64,000 bases of DNA, taken from contig CATNEN010000039.1 of assembly GCA_950097015.1 (NCBI GenBank), forward strand, positions 12,896,001 to 12,960,000. The letters are read 5' to 3'. Positions 25,898-62,294 of the stretch are shown piece by piece. The notes under the pieces are model-generated. The model was not told where the DNA came from. It saw nothing but the letters and a program-made list of their open reading frames with translations, and searched no databases. A program made the translations under genes and the position numbers. Source of the DNA: Macrostomum hystrix (taxonomy: Eukaryota > Animalia > Platyhelminthes). Each line of letters opens with the position of its first letter. Position 1 is the first letter of the stretch.

Positions 25898-25946
<49 letters not shown>

Positions 25947-28900: not shown

Positions 28901-29328
28901 CCGATGTTCTCAAAAAGTACTCATTATGCCTTCTACTCAAACATTAATCTGGACTCGAATCTTCTAATTTACCCTATATTTCCAGTCAGTTATCAAACAG
29001 AGCTCTGGTAGTTATGTATTTGGATAGTTTTCCTCTTCCAGTGGATCTCAAACGTGCTCTCAGTTAGAATAGTGGATTTAATATAACAAACCCAATTACT
29101 AACTTTTAAGACCTCCAAAGCGTAATCACCTACTTTACGCCCAAGACAATCATCAGTACAATCACCACCATTACCTACTATGACGAGAATGGAAATCCAA
29201 GTAAGTTTCTGTCTAAATTATAATGATTATGAATGAATTGATGAATCTAAAATCAGTATCCAAAATAATTTACAGTCTCATCCAGCTCGTCCACGACGAC
29301 ACAGGAACAGTCGTTGCCTGAGGCCTAA
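21947..29328 (+). CDS. Secreted multi-WSC-domain protein, paralog 1 (13 WSC domains)
   Basis: Signal peptide MRLVVLLCLAVVVSSLDA. Thirteen ~285-nt exons each encode GC(Y/F)xD..RDLP..C...C...Y.YAG.Q...C.CGN.YG.YG...C...C.GN...CGG.W.N..Y (WSC signature), arranged 4+4+4+1 with small linker exons. Stop at 29326-29328; no TM segment seen. Confidence 0.92.
25551..25942 (+). mobile_element. SINE family A, full-length copy with (TTA)n tail and TSD
   Basis: A-box TGGCAGAGCGG, B-box GTTCGATTCC, long (TTA)n tail, direct repeat AACTGATAGATT at 25537-25548 and 25943-25954. Confidence 0.92.
26015..26160 (-). mobile_element. Degenerate SINE family B-like copy
   Basis: GCTGATGCTGGTAC and GGGACTCGAA..CCGACCTT similarity to the 38363 copy. 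Confidence 0.45.
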
Positions 29329-31345: not shown

Positions 31346-31355
31346 TTTATAAAAG
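31346..31355 (+). promoter_or_regulatory. Candidate TATA box of WSC paralog 2
   Basis: TATAAAAG ~120 bp upstream of ATG 31468. Confidence 0.4.
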
Positions 31356-31467
31356 CAGTCGCTGAGACGTTAAACGGGGGCTAGGGCTACAAGACTTGTG
31401 ACAGTCATCTGCTTCTGTACCTTAAAAGACTTGTGTACTGCCGCCCTTTACCTTTGAAACAAACACA

Positions 31468-34400: not shown

Positions 34401-37400
34401 TATCGATTTTTCAGAGAGAGCCCTTATTCAAGGAGTGACGTCGGACACCATCGGTGAGTGATGAATCGGAAATTCGTAGTTGAATACTCGCGTTTCAACA
34501 AAATTATACGTACTCTTGTGTTAACGACGTTCCTATTTACATTTTAGGCAAACTGGTGACGATCAGCCAAATTCGTGAGTTAAATTAGACAAAAATAAAA
34601 GCCCGTGTACTATTGTATTTTACACCACACAGCAAACACCGGCTTCGTTAATCTACTCGGAACAGAGATGCGCACATACGGCTGCTACAAGGACAGCGGT
34701 GAGCGCGACCTGCCGCAGTTGGTCTTCACCGGAACTCTCAGTGTGCACTACTGCCGATGGACCTGTCGGCAGCTCCGCTACCGCTTCTTCGGCCTTCAGT
34801 CCATCAGCCAGTGCTTCTGCGGCAACAGCTTCGGCCAGTACGGCCAGGGGGCGGACTCCAACTGTCAGTTCAAGTGTGGCGCCAATCCCGACCAGATCTG
34901 TGGTGGCGTCTGGTACAACAGCCTCTACGCCAGCGGCATCTCCGTGGAGGGTGAGATATACGACCCGCTCAATTAAACACTTTTTACTGATATTTTTGTC
35001 CAATTTCTGACGCAAATATATGACAATCGAACGGCAGAAGCCGAGATGAAGCCCCTTGGTTGCTATGTGGATAAGCCAGACCGCGACCTGCCACTGCTTG
35101 GAACCCACTGCCCCATCATCAGCATCAACACCTGCGTGACCACCTGCGCCGATCTTGGCTACAAGTACGCCGGAGCCCAGGCCGGTGCCTGGTGCTACTG
35201 TGGTAACACCTACGGACGTTACGGCAAGGCCGAGGACTCAAACTGCTACACTCGCTGCCACGCTAACCGAAGACAGATGTGCGGCGGTGGCTGGCATCAG
35301 CACATCTACGAGACGAAAGCTGACAGTAGGTTGCATATAATGCTGCAATCTATCATCTAAAATGCTATAATATAATGCCTTTCATTGTACCTTTCATCTT
35401 CAGCCACGAACCCTGAAAGCCTCGGCTGCTACAAGGATCAGGGCGTCCACGACCTCGTCGAGATGGCCCTGTCGGGTGTGGTCAGCATTAACTACTGCCG
35501 GAAGCTGTGCCGCAACCTGGGCTACCGCTACGCTGGTTTACAGTACTCCATGCAGTGCTGGTGCGGCAACAAGTATGGTCGCTATGGCATGGCCGATGCT
35601 GCCAACTGCAACATGAAGTGCACTGGCCATCACGAGCAGATCTGCGGCGGCGTGTGGCACAACAACATCTACGAGAGCGGCAAACCTGCCTGTGAGTTTT
35701 TAGTTTACTTTTCATGTTAGTCATAATCTGCAAATGTTCGTTCGCTCAGGATCCCAGATCATAGATTTCTGAGATCATCTTTGTACATCGTTTTTGCCTA
35801 GAAAAACGCATGTAGCCGCAGAATATTAAGCCTTCCGCCTAAGGCTACAGACATTCAACATTTAAAAGGTCGGAATTCGACCCTTTGTCAGCGTCTGACT
35901 TTAATTGACGAGTATATGAACGGAATGCATTACGCACTTCTGTTGCTACTTGTGGGTAGTGGATTTAAATTATTTCTGACTCAATACCAACACCAACTCA
36001 GTCTACTTCAAGAGCATGGGCTGCTATAACGACAAGGTGGTTCGCGACCTGCCTTTCCTGGCCAAGATCGGCCTGGTGAACCTCAACAACTGTCGTCAGT
36101 CCTGCTGGCGCTACGGCTTCAAGTACTTCGGTGTGCAGAACGGCGACCTCTGCTTCTGCGGCGACAGCTACAACAAGTACGGCAGGGTCGATGATGTTCG
36201 CTGTCAGAAGCGCTGCCTTGGCAACAATGCCCAGGTTTGCGGAGACCTGTGGCTCAACAACATCTACGAGACTGGACTCGGAGGAAGTGAGTCAATTTTC
36301 CCAGTCTCCAAGTGCTTCTCCACTGCTTCACTTATAATAAGCATTTTCACAGTCAGTATCAACAACCAATATTTCAAGGCGACGAAAGCGACTACGCAAG
36401 AGAAACTGAGGAAAACAAGTCGCAAGAGAAGACTCAGCCAGATGAGACATCCACAGTCATTGATGGCAACAACGAAAACGGTGAGTGGATTCGCCTCTCG
36501 ACAAAAAATATTATCTTCACCACTTAGATATTTGTTAAAGCGTGATTGTAAATACTTTTTTCAGAGCCATCCATCGACAAGGATACCGATACAGAAGTGG
36601 ATACAAGTAAACTTGATTTTTATGGCTCTCTGTTCACCTATTACTATTACCGAAAAAATCTAATTTGCATGAATTATATAAATGAGCAAACAAAGGGCAC
36701 CTGCAGCCTTCTTTTAATTAGCTTGTAGATATGTTCTCAAGAAAACAGCTAAAAGGACATCACTTCTAAGTCCGCCACGCTAACGCCTGCAGCTTGTTTT
36801 CGTCGAGATAGACTTTCTTACGCTCAGATAGATACGGGTGCACGGGGCTTCAAGCTCGAACTATTCTCAGCTCTCGTAATGCCCGACTTGAATGACTAGA
36901 TTAGGCAAAGACGTGACAAGAATAATTCAATAGAACGGCAAGCTTAATGGCTTGATCCTCAAAGGAATAACTCTTTACCTATACAAAATGGAAGTGACGG
37001 TTATGACTAAATAACAACAGCTCAAATGAGCACGGGTGCCGTCGATCGGTTTAATGGACTTTAGCATCCATCAATAAAGCCACTTTTAATGTAGATGCTA
37101 GTAGCTCGCTTAAATCGAAGTATGGTAATAAAGACGGTGAAAAGTGTTTTTTTTCTCTCTCTTCCCTACTCGCCGCTACAGCCGTCAAGTACAAGGGCTG
37201 CTTCGCCGACAAGGCTGCCGACCGAGACCTGCCCGACCTGGTGTTCACTGGCACCGCCACCATCCAGCTGTGCGTGCGCCTGTGCGCCCGCCGTCTCTAC
37301 CGCTTCGCCGGTCTGCAGTCGGGCACGCAGTGCTTCTGCGGCAACAGCTTCGGACGGCACGGAGCCGCCGACAGTAACGACAAGTGCAATGCTCGCTGCC

Positions 37401-40400
37401 GCGGCAATGCTCAGCAGTTCTGCGGAGGAGCTTTCTTTAACACCATCTACTCGACCGGATTTGCATGTGAGTAGTTTGTGAATATGAGAATTCTAAGCAA
37501 ATATACTTATGCAGAATTCATTCCAATAGACATACATCCCAAAAGTAAGTTTCGGTCAACAATAAGAAGCGAACAGTTTGAAGGAAAGTCTTAAAACTTT
37601 AACAGTAGTCAAAACAAGTCATAGTTTGCCAAAATGACTAACCGCGTTTGCCAGAAATGTACTTAAGAAAATGTATACTGCAGCGAAACTTATTTTTGGG
37701 ATAGCCCTCGTATGTGATTTATCAGCCCTATTGGTGCTTGATACGATAATTTATTGTGCGTAATTAGATTAACTCACATTAGTATTGCCGAAGTCATAAA
37801 CTACACAGCTTATTCATAAGCATAATTTTGTGTTTGTTGCAAGACCGATATGGTAAATAACTCGCCTGCGGTCTAGTTGACTCTGCTAGCTAGAGCAAAC
37901 TTGTCCGTTACCTTACAGGGAAATTCACAAGCAGGGGCTGCTTTGTTGACCAGGCGGCTAGGGACCTCCCGGTGCAGGGCATGAGCGGCCAGGTCAGCGT
38001 CAACCGCTGTTTCAGGCGATGCCGAGACCTCGGCTACTTCTACGCCGGTGTGCAGGCTTCGTTCCAATGCTTCTGCGGCAACCAGTACAATCGCTACGGC
38101 AAGGCCGAGGACGCCAAGTGCAACCAAAAATGCCGCGGCAATCCGACCCAGACCTGCGGTGGCGTCTGGCACAACAACATCTACAGGACCACCTTCAAGA
38201 GTAAGCACCTTCCTGTTGCGTTTTATTATTGAAAAAACTAGAATAATTGATTGGTTAAAAATAATTCGATTGATTACACCTGCCCCAATCGGGCCAGATG
38301 TACAGCCGACAGCACAGCCGTAGCTATTGCGCGGCCCATCCGAAGGCTGCGTTCAGCTGTTCAGTCCATGGACTGGGGGACGCCACACCCACCCCCAATT
38401 ACCCCAGCTAATGCTGGTACAGATTAATAGCTGGGTGAACTGATGCGATGCAGAATTAGGTGTCTTGTCAAAAGAAAACAAACTGTTCCTACGGGGTCGG
38501 AGTCGGGAATTGAACCCGCCGACCTTCAAATCGTGAGTCGACGCTCTAATCAATAGGCTTCAACCCCTATTGAAAAAACTATAGTGCTTGCATAACACAT
38601 GATATTTTCCTATCCTAATTTTCAGAAATCGCTCGCACAGCCGTTGGCTGCTTCAAAGACTCTGCCGATCGTGACCTGCCAGAGTTTGTGGAGAAGGGCC
38701 TCATGACTGTCAACCTCTGCATCAACAAATGCTCAGAACTGGGCTACAAATATGCCGGTCTGCAGGGCGGCAACACCTGCTACTGCGGCAACAGCTACGG
38801 TCGCTACGGCAAGGGCGAGGCAACCATCTGCACCAACATGTGCTCAGGCAACAGCAACCAGATGTGCGGCGGTGCCGAGTACAACCTCGTTTTTGAGACC
38901 GGCGTCACAGTCAGTGAGTTCCAGAGGACAGGAGAACAGTAGAGGACTCAAAAAAGCACTATTACAGTCCCTGAGACGACTGTGTCTACCGAAAAAAACT
39001 TATTATTCAGGGGAGCAATGATATCTGAAGCGAAGGCAAGGCGGTGGTAGTTGGCGAGAGGCGAGTTTCGACTCAAGCCATTCTGAGCAGTAAATTTTAG
39101 CAGATGAATAATTAAGTTCGAAGTATTCAAACTATTAACGAAAGTTGAAAGCAAGCTTTAATTTGTTACTCTAATTTTTTAAAGGAAGAATTTTGCTTGT
39201 GTGTACAGGGCAAAAGAACAGTGCACTCGGCACACGTACTGAGCGAAGCATGCCAGGCGAGACAAAAAATGAGAAGTTTAGAGACTTACGCAATACCATT
39301 CCGATTAAACTACGAGTAATATCATGATAAACGCTGGTTCCTCACATCAACGCCCACCTTGTCAACGCAAATTCAAATGTTTCAGCTGAATTCACCAGCT
39401 TGGGTTGCTTCGTGGACAAGGCCACCGTTCGCGACCTGCCCTTCCTGGCTCGCAGATCCAAGACCAACCTGAACAACTGCCAGCGCCTGTGCAGCCGCTT
39501 CGGCTTCCTGTTCTTCGGCGTGCAGAATGGCAACGAGTGCCGCTGCGGCAACTCCTATGGCAAGCATGGCAAGGCCGAGGATGCGAACACCTGCAACGCC
39601 AAATGCGACGGCGACGCTTCGCAGACATGCGGTGGAACGCTGGTGCAGAGCGTCTACTCGACGGGACTTTCTAGCGGTGAGCTAGCACTGCGGTGCTCAG
39701 GGGATATTGTCAGATGAATAATCTAGTTTTTTAAAACTACCGATATAACTGCCACTGACTGACCATTGGATTGCACATACGATGGTTATTTATCTATTTC
39801 TCATTTTGTATGTTAGTATAGCATCAAAATTCTTAAAACTCTCTTAGATTCGATCATAATCAGCGAAGGAATCAGCAGTACTGAGTCGATCACTGGCAAT
39901 TCGATTGAGATCGTCTTGGGTGATATAACAACTAGTAGCAGCTCAACTTCGAGTTCAAACCTCGCTGATGGAGGTGAGATTATTCGCGTGATTCTGTTAT
40001 ACTGTTCCGAGTTTTGACACTTCTAAAGCAAATAAAACCACTTATGCATTGTCAGGCAATACCGTCATATCATACGAGTACATTTGGACATTCATCGGAG
40101 CCGATGGTGAGTTTTACTTTTTAGCACGTTTGATATGCGTTCACTGATTTGCATAACTTCCATTTAAGCTTCTTTGAATTTCTATTGATGATTACATGCA
40201 CCCATTCACACTTGATAGTTATTATTTAAATTGCTCCATAAAGATAAAAATCTAATGATTTCGAACGAATGGTGGTCCTAAATACTGCAATAATTCACAC
40301 ACTGCAGCCCTGGATCAGCTAAGCTTCGGTTGCTTCAAGGATGCCGCAGACCGCGACTTGCCAACCTTGGCCGAGAGCTCCAGTGCAGTGACTGTCAAGC

Positions 40401-41274
40401 GGTGCGTAAAGCTCTGTCAGGACAAGCGGTTTAAATTTGCCGGCCTGCAGAACGGCAAGGAGTGCTGGTGCGGCCAGCAGTTCGGCAGATACGGCCCAGG
40501 ACAGGACAGCAGCTGCGACAAGAACTGCGCCGGCGACGCCACGAAGAAGTGCGGCGGCGACTGGCACAACTCGGTGTACACCACTTCTCTGGAGAGTGAG
40601 TGCTCAGGATTCGGGTTAGGGTGGAAATCGGTTGGGGGGGGTCAGTGGCAGAGCGGTCTAACGCGTTTGCCTCTCGTGCCAAGGTCCCTAAGTTCGATTC
40701 CGCGGCGAGGCCGAGTCATAGCACATGTACACACTTGTGTGAGCGTATGCCTGAGCATGGTATCTGTGTGCGTGTGTGCTCAGGAGTCAGCGAATTGGGC
40801 CGAATTGCCTCCTCGCTGGCTGCGGGTCTAGTGTCACCAAATGATGTGCCATTGCCCGCAGCCCTCCTGCAATTGTTATTATTATAGGGTGGAAATCGTC
40901 ACAAAACAATTAAATGGCAGTTAATAACGGTTGGGACTGTTTAAAACTATCAATTTAGTATTTTCTTATGCGGCTGCTTTACTGTAGACTGTAGAGTCAA
41001 TGTCAATCTTTATGTAAGGACAGTTTTAAAGTTTCGATGCATCGAACTCCACTGTTTTCTGGCGTTCAAAAAGTATAGAAATGGAACAACAAACGAAACC
41101 TAAAATACCCTAAATTGCAGATCTGCAGGGCATCTCCTACGTGGTGGCTGGACCTACTCAGGTGACTATCACCTCGTCGGAGTCTGGTAAGTGAATCAAC
41201 TAGCTGAGGTTCCCAGATTGTAATTGGCTGACGATAATGAAATTTTATTTTCAGTGGTCCAACAGAAGAAGTGA
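31468..41274 (+). CDS. Secreted multi-WSC-domain protein, paralog 2 (13 WSC domains)
   Basis: Signal peptide MRSAFSVLAAVCLLATMSLPDSVFS. Thirteen WSC exons colinear domain-for-domain with paralog 1. Terminal exons give ...LQGISYVVAGPTQVTITSSES|VVQQKK* with TGA at 41272-41274. Confidence 0.92.
31648..32000 (+). mobile_element. SINE family A copy (intron 1 of WSC paralog 2)
   Basis: Full head and body; short flanking repeat ATTCTCA. Confidence 0.87.
38363..38560 (-). mobile_element. SINE family B copy
   Basis: Reverse complement has GGTTCAATTCCCGACTCC, CAAGACACCTAA, CACCCAGC, CAGTCCATGGACTGAACAGC. Confidence 0.75.
40631..40884 (+). mobile_element. SINE family A copy with internal deletion and 14-bp TSD
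   Basis: TAGGGTGGAAATCG at 40617-40630 and 40885-40898; tRNA head and TTA tail retained, mid-body missing. Confidence 0.88.
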
Positions 41275-46515: not shown

Positions 46516-47022
46516 AAAGGGTTTAGTGGATGCTGAAGATTATAAAGGAGCTCTAAATGCTGACTGCGAAACGGAAGTTATCGTCCCTGCACGAAGATAA
46601 CTTTGAAGATAAAAACTCAGGGCAGCCACCCCCAGAAGAGTATGTGAGATACTGTTGCGAACTCCGCGTGGTTGATTAGATGACAGTGGCTGCAGGTTGG
46701 CTGCCACTAAAAGTAGCACTAGTTTTCCCACCACACTGCAAACAGACTTCAAAGAGACAATTTCAGCGACCTCGGAGAGCACACATTATGCATCATTCTG
46801 GTTACCAAGGCTTAGCAACCATCGCGAGTTTATGTTCGTAATAGAAAATGAAATAAAAGGCAGTCTATCTCATAAATTTCCGATATGATTTATGACTCGC
46901 GATCCTGTTAGACCGCGCGTCGGATATTGTGGATTTCATATGTTACCGCCCCATATGAAAGCCGGTGCCGGGGGCAGAAAAATGCCCTTTATAAATAAAT
47001 AACACCCCATGGCTATTCTAAC

Positions 47023-47958
47023 CACAGATTCTATATTACCTAGATTGGTCACTCATCGAATTTGCAATAGAAACTGCGTCCGCCAGCCGTCTGCCGCGAA
47101 AACCCAGAGTTTTGCCCATAGACAGTTAGACAGATAGAAAATTTATTTGATGGTCTATCGCTCGCTCAAAACTCGCTGGCTGTGAGCTTCTGCTTCGCAC
47201 GTTAGCCATGGAGCTGATCATCAACCGTCTTAGTAGCCACGCTTGTTGTGCAGCTGCCTGCTATACTACAGAGGACACTCTAGCTTCAGTGCATGGATTT
47301 GCAATCCATCTACACAAATTTCCAAGCGATGACCAGGTAGCAGTTCGTTGGATAGAGATACTTGAATTACGCGATGTTGACTTGAATTTTGTGCGGCAGC
47401 GGAGGCTGAAAGTGTGCAGTCTGCATTTTAAAGAAACCGATTACTCCTGCCCACTACACGAACGACGTTCAGCTCGACTTAGAAAAGATTCCCTTCCAAA
47501 TCCCTACACTTTTCCACCACGCTTCGAGAAGGAATCGGTTGAAGTCGAGCCGCGACCAGACCACATTGCTGACAACATGTATCCACCAGTACTGCATCGT
47601 GAAGACACGTACGCTGTCGAGATGCCTGAGCTACACGCAATGCCAGCCGACGCTCAGGATAAAACTGGTTCAGAAGATAGGGCAACAAACAACCGCAACG
47701 AAGTTCGAAAGGAGCGGAAGAAACAGCGGGATAGAGCTCGATATCGAGATGGAGTCATCAAGAGATTAAAGCAGAAGCTTCAAAGAGCTTCAACTGCCAC
47801 TTCTGAACAGCAGAAAGTTGCAACACGCCGAATTCGAAATCGCGGTATGCACTGGAATCGCAAGCAGGTGCGAGAAGCCATTGTGATTCACCACTTGAGT
47901 TTTCGATGAACGAACGATTTCTCTTGGAGTGACCAATCTAGGTAATATAGAATCTGTG
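47023..47958 (+). mobile_element. Internally deleted P-superfamily DNA transposon (936 bp)
   Basis: Perfect 32-bp TIRs CACAGATTCTATATTACCTAGATTGGTCACTC (47023-47054, 47927-47958); 8-bp TSD ATTCTAAC (47015-47022, 47959-47966); contains a THAP ORF. Confidence 0.92.
47208..47909 (+). CDS. THAP-domain + coiled-coil protein (N-terminal part of a P-type transposase), 233 aa
   Basis: C2CH THAP motif CCAAAC...HKFP...W...VCSLHF...LRKDSLP, a basic coiled-coil region, and GMHW..AIVIHHLS resembling the start of the P transposase core. No catalytic region. Confidence 0.85.
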   Translation: MELIINRLSSHACCAAACYTTEDTLASVHGFAIHLHKFPSDDQVAVRWIEILELRDVDLNFVRQRRLKVCSLHFKETDYSCPLHERRSARLRKDSLPNPYTFPPRFEKESVEVEPRPDHIADNMYPPVLHREDTYAVEMPELHAMPADAQDKTGSEDRATNNRNEVRKERKKQRDRARYRDGVIKRLKQKLQRASTATSEQQKVATRRIRNRGMHWNRKQVREAIVIHHLSFR

Positions 47959-49924
47959 ATTCTAACTGCTACCTTTAGAAGTTTCAGCTTACATTGTAGA
48001 ATTTAATAATAGCATATTTAACGACAAAAATTTATTAGAAAATAAATCATTTAATAAGCAATGAGTTAGATAAACGACGCCTATTAAAGAAGGGAAAACA
48101 TGAGCGTAAAGGGACGAGGAAGCTTTTGCCTGCTGTGGGGAAGCTGGGACTGAGACAGGGCAGCAAAACTGACAGGCCCAATTTGTCTGGCAGCCTCCAG
48201 TGAATGATTCATGTCACTAAACTGACAATGGGCTGAGGAGCTGTCGGCGTCTGTCTGGCTGGCTAAGTGGAAAGTTTGCGGCATTCATCTGGGGCCTTTC
48301 ACTTGCCGGCCTATTTGCCCACGGGTCAGGGAGTGGTGATGGCTGCCTGCTCTGCGACGTTACCGCTGTACTGGCTGGCAGCTGAAACTAGAGAATTCAG
48401 GACGCCGTCAGGACCGTCTTGGCGCCAGAGTGCTGATGGCTCAGGCCCAGTAAGAAGAGATGTAAAGCGAGCTGCAGGATCTGGGTGTGAGCAGACTTAA
48501 GTCTGACGATGGTGCGGGCTCCAAGCTGCTTAATAATTAATCCGGCTAAGTCGCCATCTGCTTGCTGCGCGCTTGCGCCAAGTCTCGGTGGCTGGGACAG
48601 GGGGAATCAGAGCAAAAATCTCAGCAATAACAGAGAACTGTTGGGGCTAGGGAGGCCGGAACGCGTTAGAGGCTAGTTCCACTGGGTTGCTCGTCCAGCT
48701 TCGCTTCATGCTCTTCATCATCTGGCCGTCTCGCCGCCTGTAACAATGGAAGAACGAGGAAGGGAGTGCAAAAAACTTCACTTCTCTTGGTTGTGGAAGT
48801 TTCCAGCTAGCGGGCAGGTGTCGCTGGGAGAAAAGTTACTGCCGGGGTGTCGCGTTCGCTCACGAACTCAGCCCGTGGCGGATAAGGAATTATTAGGGTG
48901 GAGAGAAGAGAGACGCCCAGTTGGCGAGAAGAGTTAAGAGCTGTCGTGACATCCGTCTTCTCTTCTCGATGCGTTCCCAGGCCCAGCGCGATAGCGGTAG
49001 AGTGGGCTTTGAAATCGCATCGTAAGAATCCCCGTTGCGGCATCATTTGCTTCCCACTACTCTTCCCCGAGCTCTCGGACTTTGATTTTGATTGACGGCC
49101 CTCTTAATTTCCAACGGACCGCCGAGAAAAGGTCTCGCGATCGCCCACGCAGGTCCATACTCCAAAAAAGCCCGCTAGTGTTGACCATACGGCCTCTGAG
49201 AGTGACATGCCAGGTGTTTTGATTTGATGCAGCGGAGAAAGCGCGCTAGTAAAAGTTATTTGGCTTCGACACTTTCTGGCGAAGCGGAGAAACGCTAGGA
49301 TCTCGGGGCAGTCACGAAGAGCAATTAGGTTGGGATTGGCTTTTATAATTTGACTTTTCAGGGCGCTGCAAACTCCGGGCCTGCCATCTAGCCGCTCTCT
49401 TACATATGCCTGCTTATCTGTGCTAATTAAATCAAAGCCACAGTGCCGCAAATATGGAAGTCCTCGCACGTCGGATGTTCCGACCCTCGGTCTAATGATG
49501 GCCACCTAATGAAGTGGCTTCGACCGGGGCACTTTCATCTTTCCTCATATCTGCCTGCTGGAATCTGCGGGAGACTTTGTTGCGGACTGAGCCACGGCAG
49601 AGGAACTTTCCTCCGGTTGCCTGAGACGGAATCTCTAAGCGCACTTAAGTGGCGACGCAGTTGAAGTAGATATCGGGCTGCCGATCTACCACGGAAGCTC
49701 CGGGGATCTAATAATTTGAGCAATGGAAAATTTACTCTTTGCAATGGAAATAGTATTGCAGAGTACTTTAGTTGACGAGAATTGAGCAGATATGATTTGG
49801 GAAATCGTAAACATTCAGACTTGCTTCTAGGATTGCTGCTTCTAAAAGAACCTCACACTGAAATAAACTTTAAATTCAATTCTAGACATAATCGACTGCC
49901 TCCATCGGAAGCGCGCTAGTTGCC

Positions 49925-50815
49925 ATGGAGACAACCGCAGAAATCGTTTCTACGAGCGCCGCTCCTGTCGAAGCCGGTGCAGAAATCGATCGAACGATCC
50001 GGCTGATCTCCTATGCCGAGCTCGTCACGATCAGCATCATCGGCACCATCGGCAACTCCGTGGTGCTCTACGTCTACTCTCAGAAAAAGGACAAGCAGAC
50101 TGCCAATATCTTCATCCTCTCTTTAGCCGCCTCCGACATGATCGCCTGCACCCTGGTGATTCCGATGACTCTCTTTATGGAGCTAGCTGACTTTCGCACC
50201 CACCTGATTGTCTGCAAGCTCTACTACCTGGTGAATGCTAGTGGCATTCCGTTCAGCTGCATGCTGATGTCTGCCATCGCCGTGGATCGCTACTTCTGCA
50301 TCTGTCGTCCGTTCCTGCGCGCAATCACTCTGCCCCGCGCCCGTGCGATCGTGCTCAGCCTTGGCGGCCTGGCGCTGTCTCTGGGGATCACCACGGCAGC
50401 CTTCTGCAGCGGGGTGGTCGCTCAGACCGGACCGAATAGCACCTGGGAATACGCCAGCCAGGGCCAGTGCAAAGAAATTAACGACATCAACAAGCTGAAC
50501 GCTAGCGCTCTACATGTTTCAGAGGCCAGTCTGGCTTTCTTCCACGTGTTCCAGCGGGTTCATGTATCATTGTTTGGCATCTGCATATCGCTGGTAGTTG
50601 CTCTCTACATTTGCATCTATCGCTCTGTGCTAGCAATGCGACGGAAGCGTCGCGAACTGAAAGGCCACCAGCGGCTCAATCCTAGACGCTCTGCAACAGG
50701 AGAAGAGGCGCCGGCCGCTTCTACTCCGGCGGCTGATTCGGCTGACGTTGTAGCTGCAGCCACACCGGCTTCGACAGAGATTTCTCCAAGCGATGAAGCC
50801 AATCGAAACCTTGAT

Positions 50816-50846
<31 letters not shown>

Positions 50847-51187
50847 CGCTAAAGCTGCCTTTGAAGAAAAGACGCCGGTCCGTTCTGCCATCGCGAGACA
50901 GCGACGCCATTCAGAATCTGAAAACGGCGGCCATGCTGTTCGTTGTAGCCGTGGTGTTTTCTTGCACATTCGTCCCGGCCGCTTTAATGATTGTCAACCT
51001 GGCACCGTTCAGCCTTCTGATCTTCTACCTGTACTACATGGCCCACGCCACGAACCCGATCATCTACTGCTTCATGAACCAGAACTTTCGCGACGATCTG
51101 CGTCGCATTTTCTGTCGCGAAGGCCGCGGTGCCGCAGCCGGGGCGGCTGGCGGGCCAAGAGCTGCTCTCACCCACGGCACCATTTAG
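49925..51187 (+). CDS. Class A (rhodopsin-like) GPCR, probably a peptide receptor, single coding exon
   Basis: TM1 GTIGN, TM2 LAASD, DRY motif (AVDRY), TM6 TFVP, TM7 NPIIY, helix 8 NFR; long ICL3 with polyQ. Confidence 0.93.
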
Positions 51188-51431: not shown

Positions 51432-52490
51432 GACTACCAAGTAGGACTACTTCGAATCCCATCAGCGTTGGGTGGTGACTGATTGGTTGACAGACTAGGT
51501 GATGGTGTCCTGTGGTTGAGCTGCGCCTAACAGTTTGGCTTGATCAGTGAAATAGGAGAAATTCGAATCAGGGTGTCCATAGTAGCCTAGTTCCACCTGT
51601 TGTAGCCCTTGAAGGTCCAGCAGTCCGTCTAGATAGTTGGTGACCGCCGAAGACGGAGATGATGCAGGCACGTTCATGGGGGCGAGTGGGTCAGCGGCTA
51701 GCGTCGCTGCCTCGCACTCCAATGGACGCTAGTTCGATTCTCCCTTCAAGTCACGATTAATTTCGGGACTTGTTGGAGGGTTTGGACAGTAGCGACCGGC
51801 GGGGGTGCACCATATATCGTGCAATCAAAGCTTGAAAAAATAGCTTCGCTCCTACCTTCTGTGTGCCTGTTCTGCGTTGTGTGAGTTGTGTGCGTTGGCG
51901 CTGGGGCGTGCGGCCTTGCGGGGGGTGGCTGGGGGGCGGGCGTACACCGCCGCGCGCTTTCTGGATTTCCGTCAGTGCGATTGGATAAGTGTACACTCAT
52001 CATTCGGCCCCCCCCCTGAGGACTGATTTCAAATCAGCCTTCCGCCCCGGCTTGGTCTGCTCTGTGCGTGTGGGGCTTGGTTGGGGGCACTGCTGCCTAT
52101 TCTGGGTGCCTCCTGCCCTCCCCGGCTGGTCTGTGCTGCTGCGTGTGGTGCCTGCTCAGGGGAGGCAGCGCGATGGGCGCTAAGCGCCTAGTTCGCTGGT
52201 TTGGAGGCGTGCCGCTCCGTCGCTTGTGCGACAAGTGCCCTGGGCCCCCTGCAAATAGATAGATAGATAGCAGGCAGGTTCGGGTGACAAGCTGATAGAT
52301 TTTGAAGGCCTGGCAAGGCCGCACTGAGGCGCAGTGCTAATTTGTGAATAGGAGTGTATGAAATACACTAGCGGTTATGGGAAATCAGACCTTCGGCCAG
52401 AACCATTGAATATCTCGACGGTCTAAAGAGCTGGCGACTTGATTCTTGTTTCAGAAGATGCGTATCAAAAAGTTGTCCGTGTGCTTGCCT
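51432..52490. mobile_element. Copy of the TTAA-family transposon interrupted by a SINE
   Basis: 51465-51675 and 52270-52485 match 42340-42750 contiguously once the insert is removed. Confidence 0.78.
51676..52269 (+). mobile_element. SINE family C (~590 bp; tRNA-like head, (ATAG)n tail)
   Basis: GGGGCGAGTGGGTCAGCGG...GTTCGATTCTCCC head, AATAGATAGATAGATAG tail, near-perfect TSD GCAGGCA(C/G)GTTC. Confidence 0.72.
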
Positions 52491-53310: not shown

Positions 53311-55137
53311 TTTTGCGTCGTAATCAATCAAATTATTATGTGATGCTAATTTTAATTCATAGAGCCACAAGTTTCCAACAATCTGACTGGATTCCACGGT
53401 TATAAGTCACCCGCTACAATTTCGTTGGAATTTGTTCAAAGCGTTCGTTTATAAAGTATACTATGTATACGAGTACATGCATACATGTAAGTGTATGTGT
53501 GTTTATGTGTGCATGGTTGAGGGCCGCAACGATCGGTTTAACCAAACACGAGCACAAAAGCTCGAGAGTTATCTCTGAATACGGACCAGCCAACATTTCC
53601 AATTCCATTCTGCTGATTGCATGTTTTTGTACTTTTCTCAGCTTCTCGGCAATCGGCTTTGATAGCGGCATCAGATTTGCTCAGCTTGATCTGAGCTTTA
53701 ATGAGCAGGCTGAGGCAAATAGTTTGCTGCAGCTGCTTCATCCAGACATCGGTTCGGTTTGAGGTAAAGTTCCGAGAGCGGATTTAGTCGTGAGAGTTCC
53801 ATTTGATCCTTTTATAGCATTCTGAAGTGCGGGCTCACTGGGATCTGCTTGGGGGAAAACTGTTCCCCATAGTACCAAACTGAGGACGCGGTAGTAAATT
53901 TCAGGTCTGCAGTTTTGAAAGTCTGGGGCTGGGGCAAGCGGTCTAAGGACGGAGTGCTGGTCGTTGTGGGCGGAGCCTTCAGTTGCGGTGCCTATAGCTG
54001 CATTATTGATGCACTATAGGAGGCTGAGTTATGAGTATACCTACATAATGAAAACATTGAAACGGAAAATGTAATCCAGTGAAGTAATTTCCGTCTGATG
54101 CCTCCCTGCCGCCCCTCTTTGTTCATCGGCTCTGCTCAGACCTGTCTCATGTGGTTCATGAGCACTAAACACTAGGTCCGCCAGCAAATTGCAGCGCTCC
54201 CGTCATCAGCCTTTCATTTGCTCAGTGTGCAAATAATGCAGCGAGAGCACTTCAAGACTACCTGGATCTGCTTTTGATGCTCAACCGAGCTCAAGAAAAT
54301 TTCAAGACGGAATGAGCTCGATGGAATTTTTAAGAATAAGTTAAAGAAAAAATGCTGGCCCTTCTTATTGATAGAAATATGAGGAATGAGCATGGCGGAA
54401 CAGTGGCCTGCACTCAGCGTGACATGGGCAGGATGAAAGAACAAGTTGGTTTCACCTGCAGAATCAAAGACTCAAACAGCATAGGCCATAAACCCAAGAC
54501 AGTCTGATACAGGAGATTAGGCACGGCACTGTAAAATACTGGAAATGACATCGGTATGGTGGAAACGGAGAGATATGGAGACTTAGGCATGTAAGTCTAA
54601 GGTAAGGATGATGGCGAAAGGGATGCAGATGCAGGGATGGAGATGTATGATTGGAGCTGTTTAGGTCGAATAAGCAAGAATGGATACATTGTCTGGGATG
54701 TATGCATATTTCGTAAATTTAAAGAAGCAGTTAAACTAATAGATAAATCTTCAATTTTAATGCCTAAATGGTCAGTATTAAGTCTAGCACCGACAAAGGC
54801 AGCAAAATATGTTTGATTTTTCCACGATTGACCAACCGCAACAATAACCTAGTTAGATTAGGCATTTGTGCAAAACATCTGAGGTATAGGTTCAGGGAGG
54901 CCGTAAGAGTGTCCTAGTTAGGACCTCCGAACTAAATCCACTTTTATGTTAATTATTTAAGAATAATTTCCTAAATGCACATCAGATAATTTGGATACCT
55001 TCGAGTTGCAAAAATTATATGTTTGAATGATCTACGACTTCGCGTTTCTCAGAAAGCTAGAGATTAAATAGAACAAGCAAAAAGTTTTTTCACTGTCGGG
55101 TAGTGGTACTGCAGGCCGGTTGACAATGCGATCCATG

Positions 55138-58100
55138 TCAGCTGTCTGTGGATTCGTCAGATTCGTCCTCCTGCAGCAGACGCAATGGCGCTGGACAGAA
55201 CCGGTCCGGGCTAGACTTTCGTTTCCGCTGTCTGTCTAGCTCCTCCGAGTAATCTAGCAAGTCCAGCACGCAGCTAGTCAGGCCGGACGCTGGAAAGGGC
55301 ATGGCGTGCGCCGTGCCTGTACGCTTTGCTCGAGGTTCCAGCCACTCCACGGACGCCATGATCTCCTTCTCGCTGGGGCCGCAAATGCCGCCAAGTAGAA
55401 AGATACGATCGTCTAGAATGCAGCAGCCGAAGTTGCTGCGGGGTCGGCTCATCTGTGAGCACGTTGGCGGGATACAGAGGGCTGAGAACGAGCAGAAGTC
55501 TATTCTGATTGGGGTTCAAATGGTGCTTCAGAACCAAATCAATGATGGCGTGCATGAGGATAGCTTTTGTTGACGACTTCAAGGAATAATGTTAAATGAT
55601 TCGGTGATCGCAGTGTGAAATAAAAATAATTACAAGAGGGTTGCGGTACATCGTTTGGTGACACTAGACCCGCAGCCAGCGAGGAGGCAATGCTGCCCAT
55701 TTCGGTGACTCCTGAGCACACACGCACACAGATACTGTACGCAGGCACACGCTCACACAGGTATGTACATCTGCCCTGACTTTCTCATCGTCAGGCAGTG
55801 TACACTCTCACTGTGCCTTGGAGATTGTGGAGGTTGGCCCTCAAGGGTGTAAATTGCACGACAAGCCCCCCATGCAGGAGGCTGAGGCAACTGGGGTGAC
55901 ACTATAGACCTGCATACAGGAGATTAGGCACGACACTGCAAAATACTGGAAATGACATCGGCAATCAGGCAATTCTGTCTAAAATATTGAGTTTTACGTA
56001 AATCTCTGGCTCGCCTGACCTCGCAGTGATTTCGCCAGCCGCGAGACTCGCCAAGCCAGCACTCGACGCTGCGCAACCAGCCGGACGAGTTCCGACCGCA
56101 CAGCGCGTAGACACCGCCACCGTCCGGCAGGGCAACAAGACCAAGGCCGGTGCGAGGCGAGGATAGGAATCCGGTCAGCACTGTCCAGTCGCCAGTTGTC
56201 GGGCAGAATGCCTCGGCCGTGTCGAGATGAACTCGACCATCGAAGCCGCCAACAACCAGTAGTCGGTTTGCGAGGGCTACGGCAGCGGCTTCGCAGCGCG
56301 GCCTGCGCAATGGTTCGATGGCCACCCAGCTGTTGTCAGAGGCACGCATGCGCTCTACGTGGGTCAGGCGGCGCTCGGCAGTTTGACCGCCGATACTGTA
56401 CAGACAGTTGTCCATGGCAGCGCAGCAGTGGTAGTACCTTTCGAATGGAACAAACTGGACGTCGTGGATTCTATTTTAGGTTGACACTTTGTAGTGTATT
56501 TTTCAGTAGGGTAAGTGGCAGAGCAGTCTAACGCGCTTGCCTCTTTCATGCCAAGGTCGCTGAGCTCGATTGCACGGCGAGGCCACATTCATTTGGGGCG
56601 CAGCCGCAAAGAGAAGGCTTGGGGCTTGTCTTGCAATTTACGCCTTTGAGGGCCAACCTCCATGGCACAGTGAGTGTGTACACTGTGCTGAGGAGAAAGT
56701 CAGGGCAGATGTACGCACGTGTGTGAGTGCGTAGTGCGTGCCCGTGTACAGGATCCGTGAGCGTGAGTGCTTAGGAGTCAGCGAAATGGACAGAATTGCC
56801 TCATTGCTGGCTGCGGGTCTAGTGTCACTATATGATGTGTCAGTCAAATATTATTATTATTATAAATGCATTTTCTTCCAGTCTGCACAACAACGCACAG
56901 CAATTGCTCGGCGCTCTGTAATTACTCTGTACAGCTGTTCAGTCCGTGGACAAAGGTGTCTTCCACGCATACACGAATGTCTACCCCAGCTAATACAGGA
57001 ACGCATTTCGCTATAGATTCTAGTGATCAAAGCTCTTACCAATGTACTAACTGAGATAATCATCTGCTATAATAAGTTTTTTGCAGGACAGCTGTGTGCA
57101 CTGGAACACAATTTGGTGACCATGAACCTGGAGCCAACGAGAGGCAAACGCGTTAACCCCCCTGCTTTCAATAAAAACCTTCTCATCTGCAATTCTCACC
57201 TGGCCTGCAGCATGCAGGAGCCCTCGTACCAGCCAAGGTGCGGCCGTCGCCGATCGAAGCACAGTACCGACTTCAGAGCCTCGGAGCCACTGTAGCCGCC
57301 AACGAAATGCACAACATCGCCAAGTAGAGCGCAGCAGGCGTGCGATCGCTCGTCCAGCCAGCCAAGTTGGTGTCGTTGCGCCTCATCGGGCGAGCGGAGG
57401 TCCCACACATCGGCGCGAGGATCGTACACCTGGCAGAAGGCTGTTGGGCCCTGTCGGCGATACCAGCCACCGAGCAGCAATAGCACCTGCGAGAGATTTG
57501 ACGGCAGCCAAAATATTGAAAGAACTTCAAATCAGCTCTCATTATTCATGTGATTGCTATAAATATACATTTGCACATGGAATCACTTGGCAATATGTAC
57601 TCGTATTTGGTCACTGTTAAACATATTATCTGATAGCAGTAGTCAGAAACCTTAACTCCCACGCCAAAGTGATGATATAAATATGACAGCCTGCTGAGAT
57701 GAAGGAGATAAGACACGGAAGCAATGAGATATAGAGGGATTATACTCGTACAGTGCTTAATGGTGTTGCACGGGGCTAAAAGCGGGAGTTGAGTGGGAGA
57801 GCCGTCTAACGCGTTTGCCTCTAGCACCAAGGTCTCAAGGTCGATTCCGCGGCGAGGCCACATTTATTTGTGGCGCAGCCGCGAAGAGAAGGCTTGGAAG
57901 GCTTGCGAGTCTTGCTGTTAACGCCCTTTAGGGCCAACATCCAAGGCACAGTGGGAGCGTACACTGCTTGACGCTGAGAAAGTCAGTGCAGATGTACTCA
58001 CCTGTGGGAGCGTATGTCTGCGTACAGTATCTGTGTGCGTGTGTGCTCAGGATTCAGCAAAATGATCAGAAGTGCCTCCTCACTGGCTGCGGGTCTAGTG

Positions 58101-59987
58101 TCACTAAATGATGTGCCATTGCCCGCAGCCCTCCTGCAATTTTATTATTAAGAGGAAGCGGATTTTGGAGTCGGAGGTTGACAAACCTTGAGCAAGGAAG
58201 CAAATGCGACAATTAGACATGGGCCACGCACCTGATGCGGCCAGCGGGGTGGCTTGGACTTAAGCAATTTGTCCTGGTGCCGCTTGCTGAATTCGCTGGG
58301 AAGAGGGTAGGCGCGCGCAAAGTCGAGAAACCCATCGTTGCAGCTGATCACGGGCTCCCTTAAGGCGGCCTCGAACTCCTCAGTCTCCATATGGCCGAAG
58401 CGAACACAACAGAGCAGTTGCTCAAGCTGCAGCTGCAGCTGATCCTTTGGCTGTTTTTCATGCCGCAGCTGCAGCCACTGGCCAATTGTCTGAAGCACCT
58501 GAATTGATTGGGAGAGAAAATTGTAGCAAAAAATCCGACAAGTGCGAAAATTGCAACTGATTTCTCGCAACTGACTTACCTGCAGCTCAGACTTGCAGTT
58601 GAGCAGCTTGTGACCGAGAATTTCAGCCAGAGCGTCCGCTTCCAGCCGTAGGAAGCAGTCAGTCTGATTGAGCTGCGAGAACGAGCGCAGGAGGCAACGC
58701 AGGCTGACCTGGGTCAGGTCGGGCAGGTTAAACGGCCTGGCGAACTCCCAAACAGCCAACGCGGCCAGGACGTCAGCTGAGCAGCGTCGGTTAATGAAGC
58801 GAAGGCACATGGCGCGCAGAGGCTCGCACAGGATAAAGTCAGCGGCAAGGAACAACGGCAGGCAGGTGTCATCGGCTACTCGCAGGTGGCAGCAGCGCAG
58901 GCTGATGCCGCTGAGGGCGGCAGAGATGCTGTCGCCGATGCAGCTCAACCAGCCGAGACGCAATTCGACGAAGCTAAAATTGAATTAAATTAATGGGCCT
59001 CTCTAGATTCATGTGCCTTTTAAAAACCGGAAAGATAATAATTTTCATTACAGAAAAAGTGATATTTTGAGAATAAGAAACTAAAAAGGTAAGTGAGATT
59101 GTGTCAATAGATTATTATGGACACAATAAGAATTACTATTATTTATTATTCGCAGGAGGCCTGTGGGCACTGGCACATCATTTGGTGACAGCAGACAGGT
59201 GGCAATTCTGCCCATTTCGCTGACTCCTGAGCACACACTGATGGCACACACACATAAATACCGTACACGGGTGTTTCACACAGGTGTGTCCATATGCCCG
59301 GACTTTCTCATCGTCAGGCAGTTTACACTCTCACTGAGCCTTGGAGGTTGGCCTTCAATGGCGTAAATTGCACGACAAGCCCCCAAGCCCCCAGGCCAAA
59401 TGCATTTGGCCTCGCCGCGGAATCGAGCTCAGGGACCTTGGCGCGAGAGGCAAACGCGTTACACCAACTCACCCCAACGAATCACTAGGGACATCAAATG
59501 CTCACTACAGTAATTGAAGTAGTTGTTCATCCGGTTTTCCCTGATTAGAAAAAGCTTATTTTTCATAGCCTCACACTATGATATTGCTACAATCAGCAAT
59601 ATCAAGCTATAGTAATATAACTTTCTAATTAATTAGGTAGAAATGACATTAGTTAAATCCCAAGTCTCACTTTTCCTGGCTGTATTTGAACAGCGAGCTG
59701 AAAAATCCGCTGTGAAAGCCAACGGAGAAGGCATTGACAGACTTGGTGGCACCACAGTTCACGAATGCGATTGTGTGCGTGTTGAGAAAGGACAGATCAG
59801 CATCCAACCAATCCAGGTCCTGGCAGGCGATGAACTCTCGATAACGCGCCTGCAGATGATGAGGCATGAAGCCGCTGGCCAGTTCCTCCATCATCAGTGG
59901 GAAGGCCAGCTGGCGCAGCGCAGCGCAGCCGCTGTTGCTCCAGTTGCACTCATGTCTAATGTCACTGCCCTGTGTATTTATCTGCAT
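55138..59987 (-). CDS. BTB-BACK-Kelch protein, KLHL10-like
   Basis: Exons ~59987-59669 (BTB start, ..HSGFFSSLF), ~59542-59508, ~58975-58580 (BTB end/BACK), ~58499-58232, ~57487-57200, ~56438-56020, ~55453-55138. Kelch GG..W repeats. Spliced PRWPHQ|VLLLLGGW...PT...YDPRADVW resembles KLHL10. Orthology not tested. Confidence 0.85.
55625..55871 (-). mobile_element. SINE family A copy, 5' truncated
   Basis: Body and tail match; no tRNA head. Confidence 0.8.
56508..56862 (+). mobile_element. SINE family A copy
   Basis: Head, body and (TTA)n tail. Confidence 0.85.
57790..58149 (+). mobile_element. SINE family A copy
   Basis: Head with GTCGATTCC, body and TTA tail. Confidence 0.85.
59140..59476 (-). 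mobile_element. SINE family A copy (diverged)
   Basis: Reverse-complement match including the head. Confidence 0.78.
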
Positions 59988-60253
59988 CGCGTGGTCCAAG
60001 GACTCGCTCTATTGGTCTCCAACATTCAGCTGGAGCAAGCTTTCTTCTACTAAGGAATATTCGAATAAAATAATAAAAAAGTGAAATCTCATGACTATTA
60101 TATCTCACGGAAGCATGAATTTAATGTTTAGAAGCAGCTGGCTTTGTCTATGTCATCACTCGACGCGCGTATTTTCTCTAGCACAAATAATAGTGCACAC
60201 TTTTGGTGTGCGCAAAACAAGTTGCTTCAACTTAATATTCATAGTGAAATATA

Positions 60254-60851
60254 CATTTTTACGTTCTATTTGATAAAAACTGCAACCAATTTGGCCACGG
60301 CTCAGCCTGACGCAGCCGCAGCAATTTTCCATAGACAGCCGCCGCTAGCAGCAACCAATTTGGTAAAAACTGCGAGCTATTTTGCCAGCTTGAAGATATC
60401 ATTCCTATCATCTTATCATTCTTATCATCACTCTGATGGCGAATCGTGGGCCGTACCAAAAGATAAGTGAGCTGGATCGAGAGCGAATCGTGAGAGCGTA
60501 CAGGAATGGCGACGACTGGAGAGAGCTTGGCAGAATGATGGTCGGCTGCCATCAGTGCCACTTCATTCATTCTTAATGTTATGAATTCGTGTTCTGACTT
60601 CTGACTGAGGACATATTGTTATCATTCTTTATCGTTATTGTTATGCTATCGCTCCCTATTTCGCTACTGCTGTTGACAGGGCAGGTCAAATACAGCAGTG
60701 AGCTGCTATCTTCAAGCTGGCAAAATAGCTCGCAGTTTTTACCAAATTGGTTGCTGCTAGCGGCGGCTGTCTATGGAAAATTGCTGCGGCTGCGTCAGGC
60801 TGAGCCGTGGCCAAATTGGTTGCAGTTTTTATCAAATAGAACGTAAAAAGG
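60254..60851 (+). mobile_element. Mini Tc1/mariner/IS630-like element with ~145-bp TIRs
   Basis: Near-perfect inverted repeats (~60254-60399 vs ~60707-60851), TA on both flanks, internal 46-aa ORF resembling a transposase N-terminal HTH. Exact termini uncertain by ~10 bp. Confidence 0.8.
60436..60576 (+). pseudogene. Truncated transposase N-terminal HTH fragment
   Basis: MANRGPYQKISELDRERIVRAYRNGDDWRELGRMM..., below the ORF-track cutoff; pattern resembles Tc1/IS630-type first HTH. Confidence 0.55.
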
Positions 60852-61014
60852 TATATTACACCTTTCCTCGCTCAATTTTGGCACAGCTGCAGTCTATTCT
60901 TCTCAACTTGCTTTCAAACCCGAAAGTTTATGGTCAGTCCCTACCATAGATATTATATACCTGGAAGGTCCTTATTAGGTTTTCATCCGATTCCGACAGT
61001 CTCGCAGTCTATTC

Positions 61015-61058
61015 CACAGATTCTATATTACCTGTATAACGGTAATATAGAATGTGTG
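61015..61058. mobile_element. 44-bp remnant (probable excision footprint) of the P-superfamily element
   Basis: CACAGATTCTATATTACC-TGTATAAC-GGTAATATAGAATGTGTG, i.e. the terminal 18 bp of each TIR, between 8-bp direct repeats GTCTATTC (61007-61014, 61059-61066). Confidence 0.85.
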
Positions 61059-62294
61059 GTCTATTCTGACACTTAGCAAGCGTTTCAGACAGCTTTCGAC
61101 ACTTGTCATTCATTCATTGAATTCATTCATTTCCGTCAAGGGGGTGGCTTATCCCTCCTTTGCCTTGCTGTCTATGGCATGAAAGCTGGCTCCATAAGTT
61201 CAATTCCGACAGATTGCAAGCATATTGTACAGTTTCAGCTTATGTTCACCCCCTAGTTGTGGCTGCTCCCGTTGTCGTATTGTCATGTCATGTCACATTG
61301 TCATCTGCCTGTCATCTTATAAAATCGCGTTCGAGTATATAAACGAGAATAAAATGAAGATTGAAGCTTTCTAAATTTTTCATTAAAGCGACATGTTTTG
61401 CAAGATATTACTAAAAGAACAGTGATCTGCTTCCAATAAACGTTATCAAACATTATAATATGAAATAAAGTGAAGAAATCCCATTTCGCTAGTGCATTTT
61501 TCCGTGAAAATCTGCCTCTAATAAATTTACCAAAATGAATTACCCTGTCCTTCTTCTTCTAGTGTGTTGTGTATTGCAAAACTCTAGAATGCCAGATTAT
61601 ATTAGCAAAATTAGAGATTGCAAAGATACGAGCGGGATAGAGCCGATTTAATAAAACGCTATAGGGAAATGAATGTATCTGTATTAAAAAATCGAGCTAG
61701 GTTGAATGTTGCACCCTCATAGACGTGTCCGTTGGGTCCGAAGCTCTAACAACTAAGGCTAAGAAGAGGCCTCGTTGATTTTGCAGGTAATTTGATAGTT
61801 CTTGATGGAGTTTTTATCATTTTTAAAAGTGCAAATGCTTTTTAGACGACAACTAGAAACTTTTATGATTTGCTGCAACAGGTTTAAAATAAAATTAAGC
61901 TAAATTAAATTAATTAAACTGAATTTAATCAAACAATTAGAACTTTTTTTACAACTGAAAAAGTTACTGCACTCCATTTAAGAGAGACCCCGGTGAGAAC
62001 GACTAGAAAAACTGTTGCCAGCTCTGCCAAAATCCTACTCAGGTGCCGATAAATTACCGATAAAATAATTGCTTATAGTTTTTTCTCCCATCCACATAGA
62101 GCTACTGGGGCCACTAGCTACCTAGCAGGGTATGACAATTAGCGGAAGGACACTCCGCGTAGAGCCAGCAAACCTGGTGGCGATAATGGCCTGGACAGTC
62201 AATATATAATGCTTCGCCTATCAGAATGCGTTGCGCATGGTGGAAACGTAGGAAGCTGCTCTGACTTCAAATTAGCGACCTAGATCTGCTGAAG

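Follow-up and report, generated by a model that had tools for sequence, protein, structure and literature searches.

We analyzed one 64,000-nucleotide (nt) stretch of DNA from the flatworm Macrostomum hystrix (contig CATNEN010000039.1; hereafter the window, in whose positions all coordinates are given). It contains a 936-bp P-type transposable element at 47023-47958 and, downstream of it, the open reading frame (ORF) of a rhodopsin-family G protein-coupled receptor (GPCR). The element is transcribed, RNA contigs link the interior of its right terminal inverted repeat (TIR) to the GPCR exon across GT-AG ends, and it probably serves as the first exon of the receptor gene and the main source of its 5′ end in carriers. 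It is a real, young, internally deleted flatworm P element that is like the Drosophila KP element in outline. We do not class it as a KP-type repressor because one defining feature fails and the functional ones are unsupported. The distance from the element end to the GPCR ORF start is 1967 nt; a preliminary description of the window had mentioned these 2 kb in passing, and the remark gained weight since RNA contigs join the two.

Probable splicing of the element to a receptor exon

Copies were surveyed in assembled contigs of public sequencing runs. Twenty-four runs were listed, 20 with part of the element, and eight were compared in detail (named X plus a number). X1 and X2 give the same contigs at the same depths and are counted as one data set. 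X2, X3, and X6 are from the window's organism and have no library record; they were identified as spliced RNA by the host intron 55452-56020, which is skipped in all three with GT..AG ends on the minus strand. X12 has a different organism label. The features involved in the joint are:

47906..47932, plus strand: 8-codon ORF that overlaps the stop of the element's THAP ORF, in the GPCR frame and closed before the donor
47942..49885, plus strand: skipped GT..AG stretch of 1944 nt; its donor is in the right TIR, at a distance of 17 nt from the element end (X3 depth 11.1, X6 depth 3.6)
49886..49924, plus strand: untranslated start of the GPCR exon, 39 nt, following an AU-rich acceptor
49925..51187, plus strand: rhodopsin-family GPCR ORF, 420 amino acids (aa), uninterrupted (7tm_1, E 7.5e-27)

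Two of the four runs (X3 and X6, from two studies) have contigs in which the element joins the host exon across GT-AG ends, with more than 31 letters on both sides. The X3 contig (973 nt) has 66 letters in the element and 907 in the GPCR exon, and the X6 contig (312 nt) has 58 and 254. The donor is TAG/GTAATA at 47941/47942, within the right TIR, and the acceptor is TTCTAG/ at 49885/49886, 39 nt upstream of the GPCR start in a region that is AU-rich (72.5% over 40 nt). By length, the element-side letters extend to 47871 (X3) and 47879 (X6). They thus span the deletion junction described below and link the RNA to the deleted form; beyond that junction are 30 and 22 letters, below the 31-letter mark. 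A contig from the element body in X3 has the window's own letters at the private sites 47490, 47525, and 47591. Bin depths at 49789-50109 equal those of the single joint contigs, and therefore the assemblies retained no other path into the GPCR 5′ end. Relatives of this GPCR bear orexin, CCK, or neuropeptide-receptor-like names.

In the joined RNA the THAP ORF comes first, with a strong start context and a stop 32 nt before the joint, followed by the 8-codon ORF, and no frame is fused to the GPCR. A THAP-GPCR fusion protein is excluded by stops at 47907 and 47930. The kept right end of the element has no poly(A) hexamer (the first AATAAA downstream is at 48041), so transcripts from the left end would reach the TIR donor.

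These observations suggest a likely route. Transcription would begin near 47165-47200, from a promoter belonging to the element. The internal deletion may have removed the element's own 3′ end signal, so that polymerase would read into the TIR, and the TIR donor would then capture the GPCR acceptor, the next strong one. The message produced would be a two-ORF RNA, with the 233-codon THAP ORF first and the GPCR ORF second. Since the THAP ORF is upstream and unfused, receptor output would depend on re-initiation and is likely low.

Several points weigh against the element being the first exon and main 5′ source. The data are assembled contigs, from which rare paths are dropped and in which start, strand, and level are invisible, so "main source" and "own promoter" are things that we infer. 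The depths of the joint are low (11.1 and 3.6). The joint is absent in X2, one of the three RNA data sets of the window's organism, which expresses a sister copy of the element, and it is also absent in X12. A DNA deletion or a template switch is conceivable, because five letters are common to both sides of the joint and its donor coincides exactly with the 17-nt P cleavage position. The intact right flank is seen in the window and X4, that is, in other animals than the RNA sources. The donor GTAAT differs from GT[G/A]AG, the most enriched in Macrostomum lignano (PMC8629364). An X2 contig (depth 4) at 49560-49709, inside the skipped stretch, begins with 19 unmatched letters and may mark another GPCR 5′ end. 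Gaps in cover were not taken as evidence: X2 lacks a contig of the GPCR ORF, X12 lacks contigs of the GPCR and the kelch-type gene, X1, X5, and X9 lack flank contigs, and X3 and X6 lack a contig at 47128.

The splicing may be real and yet only a leak. In that case the GPCR would have its own promoter or a trans-spliced start absent from the contigs, and the chimeric RNA would be without consequence. We regard this as unlikely. The low depths, the dropping of alternative paths from contigs, and the X2 contig at 49560-49709 all fit a leak. Chimeras of transposable elements and genes are common in flies, at about 9% of the transcriptome (10.1101/2022.12.02.518890), and an upstream ORF with a strong start context would impede GPCR translation. 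However, both data sets with GPCR contigs have a 5′ contig that is continuous from the element into the GPCR.

It is very improbable that the joint is a deletion of flanking DNA from the transposase cut site, or a switch of the reverse transcriptase on the five common letters. Its position 17 nt from the element end is the P cleavage offset (PMC7776569, PMC10983969), and the five letters common to both sides would suit a template switch. Against both are the exact GT..AG ends with an AU-rich acceptor region and the identical joint in two studies. The flank is also intact in X4, a DNA-like run (right flank 47929-48200, depth 88.3; left flank 71.5), and X6, one of the runs with the joint, matches the window with 0 other letters at every listed host piece.

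Slightly more improbable still is an exonized element, in which a host promoter upstream of 47015 would drive read-through of the whole element, with exit by the TIR donor. The sister copy is covered from TIR to TIR in X1/X2, as read-through predicts. A weak hint to the contrary comes from contigs that start at 47164 (X12, preceded by adapter letters) and 47176 (X6), just upstream of the ATG, although contigs do not mark starts.

We thus favor the element as first exon and main 5′ source of the GPCR. A bolder form of this reading, which we consider rather unlikely, is that a mini P element has captured a neuropeptide-type GPCR gene through its TIR donor and now supplies that gene's promoter and first exon. 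A possibly trans-spliced gene would now be a cis-spliced two-ORF message under P-family regulation. The family would be a mobile splice-donor cassette, with a donor in every copy and most footprints, that rewires neighboring genes.

Structure of the element

The 936-bp length, the perfect 32-bp TIRs starting with CACAG, and the 8-bp target-site duplication (TSD) given in the preliminary description were all confirmed by measurement. The parts are:

47015..47022, unstranded: left 8-bp TSD, identical to 47959-47966
47023..47054, plus strand: left TIR, 32 bp, 32/32 identical to the reverse complement of 47927-47958
47053..47060, plus strand: left copy of an 8-bp subterminal motif, a word common to both ends and a candidate transposase site
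47899..47900, unstranded: internal deletion junction with a 2-nt overlap (contigs depart at 47900 and join at 47899)
47902..47909, minus strand: the 8-bp motif again, 50-57 nt inward from the right terminus; the deletion ends 1-3 nt inside it
47927..47958, minus strand: right TIR, 32 bp, matching the left TIR
47959..47966, unstranded: right 8-bp TSD, identical to the left one

Both TIRs start with CACAG and are identical at 32 of 32 bases, which agrees with the TIRs of the P superfamily (about 31 bp, CA start). An 8-bp TSD, also typical of the superfamily, is present at two loci in the window, the 936-bp element and a 44-bp remnant. A scan of the whole window for 8-bp duplications flanking inverted ends gave four matches, of which these two are the best. 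Of the words common to the left 188 nt and to the part of the right end internal to the TIR, the candidate subterminal motif is the longest. A tblastn search with the element's ORF found no further copy in the window. In X1, X4, and X9, several foreign flanks agree with the window's last three flank letters (loose ends from 47020), which hints at a target-site preference.

Parent form and deletion junction

The element belongs to the P superfamily, to a family of Macrostomum-type flatworms, as judged from its sequence and that of its relatives. The two proteins closest to its ORF are 96% identical and named from M. lignano. An unnamed 639-aa protein (P0003) matches 96% of the ORF at 49% identity. 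It contains THAP, helix-turn-helix (HTH), RNase H, and GTP-binding domains and aligns with 6P5A, a structure of the Drosophila P transposase (E 2.4e-24). Further relatives at 33-39% identity have the same domain layout. HTH, RNase H, and the GTP-binding insertion, which mark the P superfamily, were found in P0003 and two other relatives (P0004 and P0024).

Other identities were considered. A hAT identity is compatible with the 8-bp TSD but not with the protein domains. A Transib or RAG-like element would be compatible with the CACAG start, but the TSD, judged by the length known for such elements, and the protein are P-type.

Sequence comparison identifies the element as an internal deletion derivative of a longer P-superfamily transposon. 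Contigs of X4, X5, X9, and X12 track the window up to 47900 and then diverge; in X4, X5, and X12 the diverging letters continue in frame into the HTH, like P0003. Other contigs of X4, X5, and X9 enter the window at 47899 and reach the right TIR. Because these contigs meet at 47899/47900, the window copy consists of the first 878 bp of a longer element and its last 58-60 bp. The family's own long form is known only from 30 letters beyond the junction. An intron at this position is ruled out, as DNA-like runs show both parent ends. Membership in the P superfamily and an internal deletion, both proposed in the preliminary description, are supported by the TIRs, the TSD, the THAP domain, the domain layout of relatives, and the long-form contigs.

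The deletion is not unique to the window copy. A check for copies with the same breakpoint found a 215-nt contig in X1 that bridges the junction (157 + 58 letters) and belongs to a second, sequence-distinct copy. This sister copy in X1/X2 has about a dozen differences from the window and an 11-nt duplication in the left TIR, and it is likely at a second locus because its one visible X1 flank differs from the flanks at the window locus. The 47900 junction is present in the window, in X1/X2, and inside the chimeric contigs of X3 and X6, and it is not among the listed contigs of X4, X5, X9, and X12.

There are also other junctions in the group. One at 47812 in X1 leads into sequence resembling late transposase. 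P0002 has a different deletion junction and a tail that matches the C-terminus of relatives (E 2.6e-16), and P0006, from a related family, has its own junction and a similar truncation. Truncated THAP ORFs are therefore a routine product of deletion in this group. X4 depths (body 369, flanks 72-88, long form 187) suggest a few copies, though depths are no copy number. A 365-nt contig in X6 leaves the element at 47822 after 203 letters, where an X4 body contig also stops, and is probably a further structural form. In metagenome contigs, a search for the TIR pattern gave no matches, and a search with protein queries gave 254 candidates, none of which was confirmed.

The truncated transposase

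The element encodes an uninterrupted 233-aa ORF, with a THAP domain and a stop 17 nt before the right TIR (47927), as the preliminary description had it. The ORF ends inside the HTH, ahead of the RNase H core. Its parts are:

47208..47909, plus strand: 233-aa truncated transposase ORF (231 transposase codons plus two across the deletion junction)
47244..47498, plus strand: THAP C2CH DNA-binding domain, residues 13-97 (Pfam PF05485, E 3.4e-10, above the curated cut-off)
47673..47843, plus strand: long basic helix predicted by AlphaFold2 at residues 156-212, the counterpart of the zipper region in the Drosophila transposase (relatives align to 6P5A there)

The THAP region also matches the THAP2 structure (E 7e-4). 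The THAP residues C13/C14-C18-C70-H73, P39, and W48 are all present, and the domain is N-terminal, as in the P superfamily. The description of the ORF as intact is right for the open frame and the zinc ligands, but three conserved residues are changed. The AlphaFold2 model (mean pLDDT 72, pTM 0.43) has the helix at 156-212 and a short helix at 218-232. A homodimer prediction for residues 150-233, in which the predictor left the alignment unused, scored 0.01, which counts neither for nor against dimerization. The basic coiled coil reported earlier holds as a long predicted helix in a region that aligns to the Drosophila transposase, but its heptad pattern is weak (at most 44% hydrophobic at a/d); given this, the label is kept because relatives align to that transposase.

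Constraint and the repressor question

The earlier proposal of a KP-like repressor combined an outline with a function. The outline, a deleted element with both ends and a THAP-containing N-terminal fragment, is supported. Translation is interrupted ahead of the catalytic core and the DNA-binding domain is kept, as in KP-type elements. The ORF was also found to be transcribed, by the X3 contig with the window's letters at private sites, in a spliced data set whose contigs carry neither strand nor level.

The 233-aa protein appears to drift, on small counts of substitutions, and selection as a repressor is not supported. At six ORF positions, X4, X5, and X9 share a letter that differs from the window; five of these differences are non-synonymous and one is synonymous, and the neutral expectation for this ORF is 77% non-synonymous. 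Three of the five changed residues (A95S in the AVP box, L106F, and R215H) are at conserved sites (P 0.066 if random), taken as the 49 of 231 positions kept in at least five of seven distant relatives. The long forms of X4 and X9 differ by four non-synonymous and six synonymous changes (P 0.013 vs neutrality), with none of the four at conserved positions. In X1/X2, the body contig ascribed to the sister is interrupted by a stop at codon 115, and this contig may derive from the 47900 form, from the 47812 form, or from both. This comparison, of the dN/dS type suggested in the preliminary description, finds changes that look neutral, but the counts are small.

Several points count against drift. 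The contrast in substitutions between deleted and long forms, with the sister's H229P included, is not significant (Fisher P 0.13). The X5 long-form contig has two stops too. Two of the five changes, at codons 25 and 33, may precede the deletion. The zinc ligands are intact and the frame is open.

A selected repressor, in which the 233-aa protein binds family ends, blocks the transposase, and is kept for that role, seems to us quite unlikely. It would fit the intact C2CH ligands, the transcription of the ORF in X3, and the junction being common to a second copy. A long form is present in the same organism (X4), so a target of repression exists. The stop is 32 nt upstream of the exon junction, and by the 50-nt rule for escape from decay the message would evade it. 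The ORF also shows the two sequence features by which PMC12393704 defines putative repressors. Set against these are the changes at conserved A95, L106, and R215, the codon-115 stop in the sister contig, and the lack of a synonymous excess. Several other family junctions (47812 in X1, P0002, and P0006 in a related family) yield similar truncations. Among the X4 contigs listed none bridges the junction, and no amplification of the 47899/47900 deletion was seen among the run contigs examined. Also absent from the ORF is the remaining part of the HTH, which KP keeps. A maintained repressor, as first proposed, is therefore not upheld. By analogy with KP, the truncated THAP protein may still bind family ends as a by-product of deletion.

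Past activity of the family

A second trace of the family in the window is a likely excision footprint:

61007..61066, unstranded: 44-bp family remnant (61015-61058) between perfect 8-bp duplications

The remnant consists of 19 nt of one TIR end, 7 nt of filler, and 18 nt of the other end, with one mismatch; the chance expectation of the 19-nt match is 7e-7. The GTAAT core of the donor is preserved on each of its strands. In X4 and X5, five joints keep 16-20 bp per element end. Repair after a 17-nt staggered cut is expected to leave footprints of the TIR ends. Remnants that keep 16-20 bp per end are consistent with the 17-nt staggered cut of P transposase (PMC7776569, PMC10983969).

The ORF is 96% identical to M. 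lignano proteins, vs 47% for the best M. lignano match of the GPCR. This contrast hints at horizontal transfer of the P family, on the basis of one host gene whose orthologue is possibly missing.

Comparison with known systems

Drosophila KP and the window element are both internally deleted P elements that keep both ends, encode an N-terminal fragment comprising THAP and the zipper region along with a few new residues, and are transcribed. KP retains 199 transposase residues, through the HTH (PMC4938643; other KP sources are PMC7776569 and PMC12393704), whereas the window ORF breaks off at a point that aligns with about residue 172 of the Drosophila transposase (6P5A), about 27 residues earlier and inside the HTH. 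KP is widespread and a proven repressor, whereas the window element is at most a candidate repressor and has altered conserved residues. Its right end keeps 58-60 bp, vs 216 bp required in D. melanogaster, and barely retains the 8-bp motif common to the left end. In length it resembles the ends of Anopheles P-type miniature inverted-repeat transposable elements (P-MITEs), where ends of less than 100 bp suffice (PMC1562414).

The window family shares ~31-bp TIRs with a CA start, an 8-bp TSD, and a THAP-HTH-RNase H-GTP-binding transposase with D. melanogaster P, Anopheles P and P-MITEs, and zebrafish Pdre, and differs from them in being from a flatworm. It indicates recent activity of a P family beyond insects and vertebrates, one that comprises long forms, several deletion derivatives, and remnants of the excision type. 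Domesticated P neogenes of Drosophila encode a truncated P transposase beside host transcription signals and are immobile and conserved. In contrast, the window copy keeps perfect TIRs and a TSD and shows no constraint.

As in known gene chimeras initiated by transposable elements (10.1101/2022.12.02.518890; PMC7605248; PMC13690279), the element gives a start or splice site to the RNA of a neighbor. Here the donor is within the TIR and thus outward-facing at both ends of every copy, and the element's part is the whole truncated-transposase ORF, upstream of the host ORF and unfused. Among the titles listed from the literature on such chimeras, none concerned a donor in a P TIR. We found no paper that brings together flatworms, P elements, THAP, and transposase, and among the papers listed in a broader search none mentioned Macrostomum; the family may have an entry in repeat databases, supplements, or subscription papers, which were outside this search.

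Trans-splicing affects 30% of M. lignano genes (PMC8629364), and a cis donor located upstream reportedly takes precedence over trans-splicing (Conrad et al. 1993, as cited in PMC8629364). The window resembles a trans-spliced gene converted to cis-splicing in having an upstream donor and an acceptor near the gene start, although native trans-splicing is only conjectural here. The GPCR acceptor fits the [T/C]TN part of the motif reported for M. lignano but ends in TAG, not CAG (PMC8629364).

The joint would be a concrete case in which the terminal repeat of a DNA transposon provides a host receptor gene with a splice donor, in a group of flatworms used as regeneration models and in which cis- and trans-splicing compete for acceptors. 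With this family one can also ask whether selection maintains KP-like repressors or whether internal deletion simply yields them by default, and the evidence here favors the default. An active native P family could become a transgenesis tool for Macrostomum-type worms.

Other features of the window

Additional repeats and genes were noted. A 618-bp MITE-like element at 60244-60861, with 158-bp inverted ends that are 98% identical, is about 150 bp from the 44-bp footprint. At 51672-52291 there is an insert of about 620 bp within another repeat (51453-51675 + 52270-52487), with a head that looks tRNA-like by eye and a short GATA-repeat tail. ARAGORN found no tRNA in this insert. Its contig depth is very high in X2 and X3, and it is likely a short interspersed nuclear element.

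Three multi-exon genes were assigned domains by eye: a BTB/kelch-like gene at 55042-58984 (minus strand), to which the host intron 55452-56020 spliced in three runs belongs, a long gene with tandem C-type lectin domains at 7646-14712 (minus strand), and a long gene with tandem WSC-type domains at 22091-40831 (plus strand). A dispersed repeat of about 340 bp is present in at least nine copies that are 70-88% alike:

5426-5792: ~340-bp repeat copy
13596-13910: ~340-bp repeat copy
20535-20868: ~340-bp repeat copy
25550-25925: ~340-bp repeat copy
31647-32006: ~340-bp repeat copy
55619-55870: ~340-bp repeat copy
56509-56844: ~340-bp repeat copy
57790-58150: ~340-bp repeat copy
59125-59464: ~340-bp repeat copy

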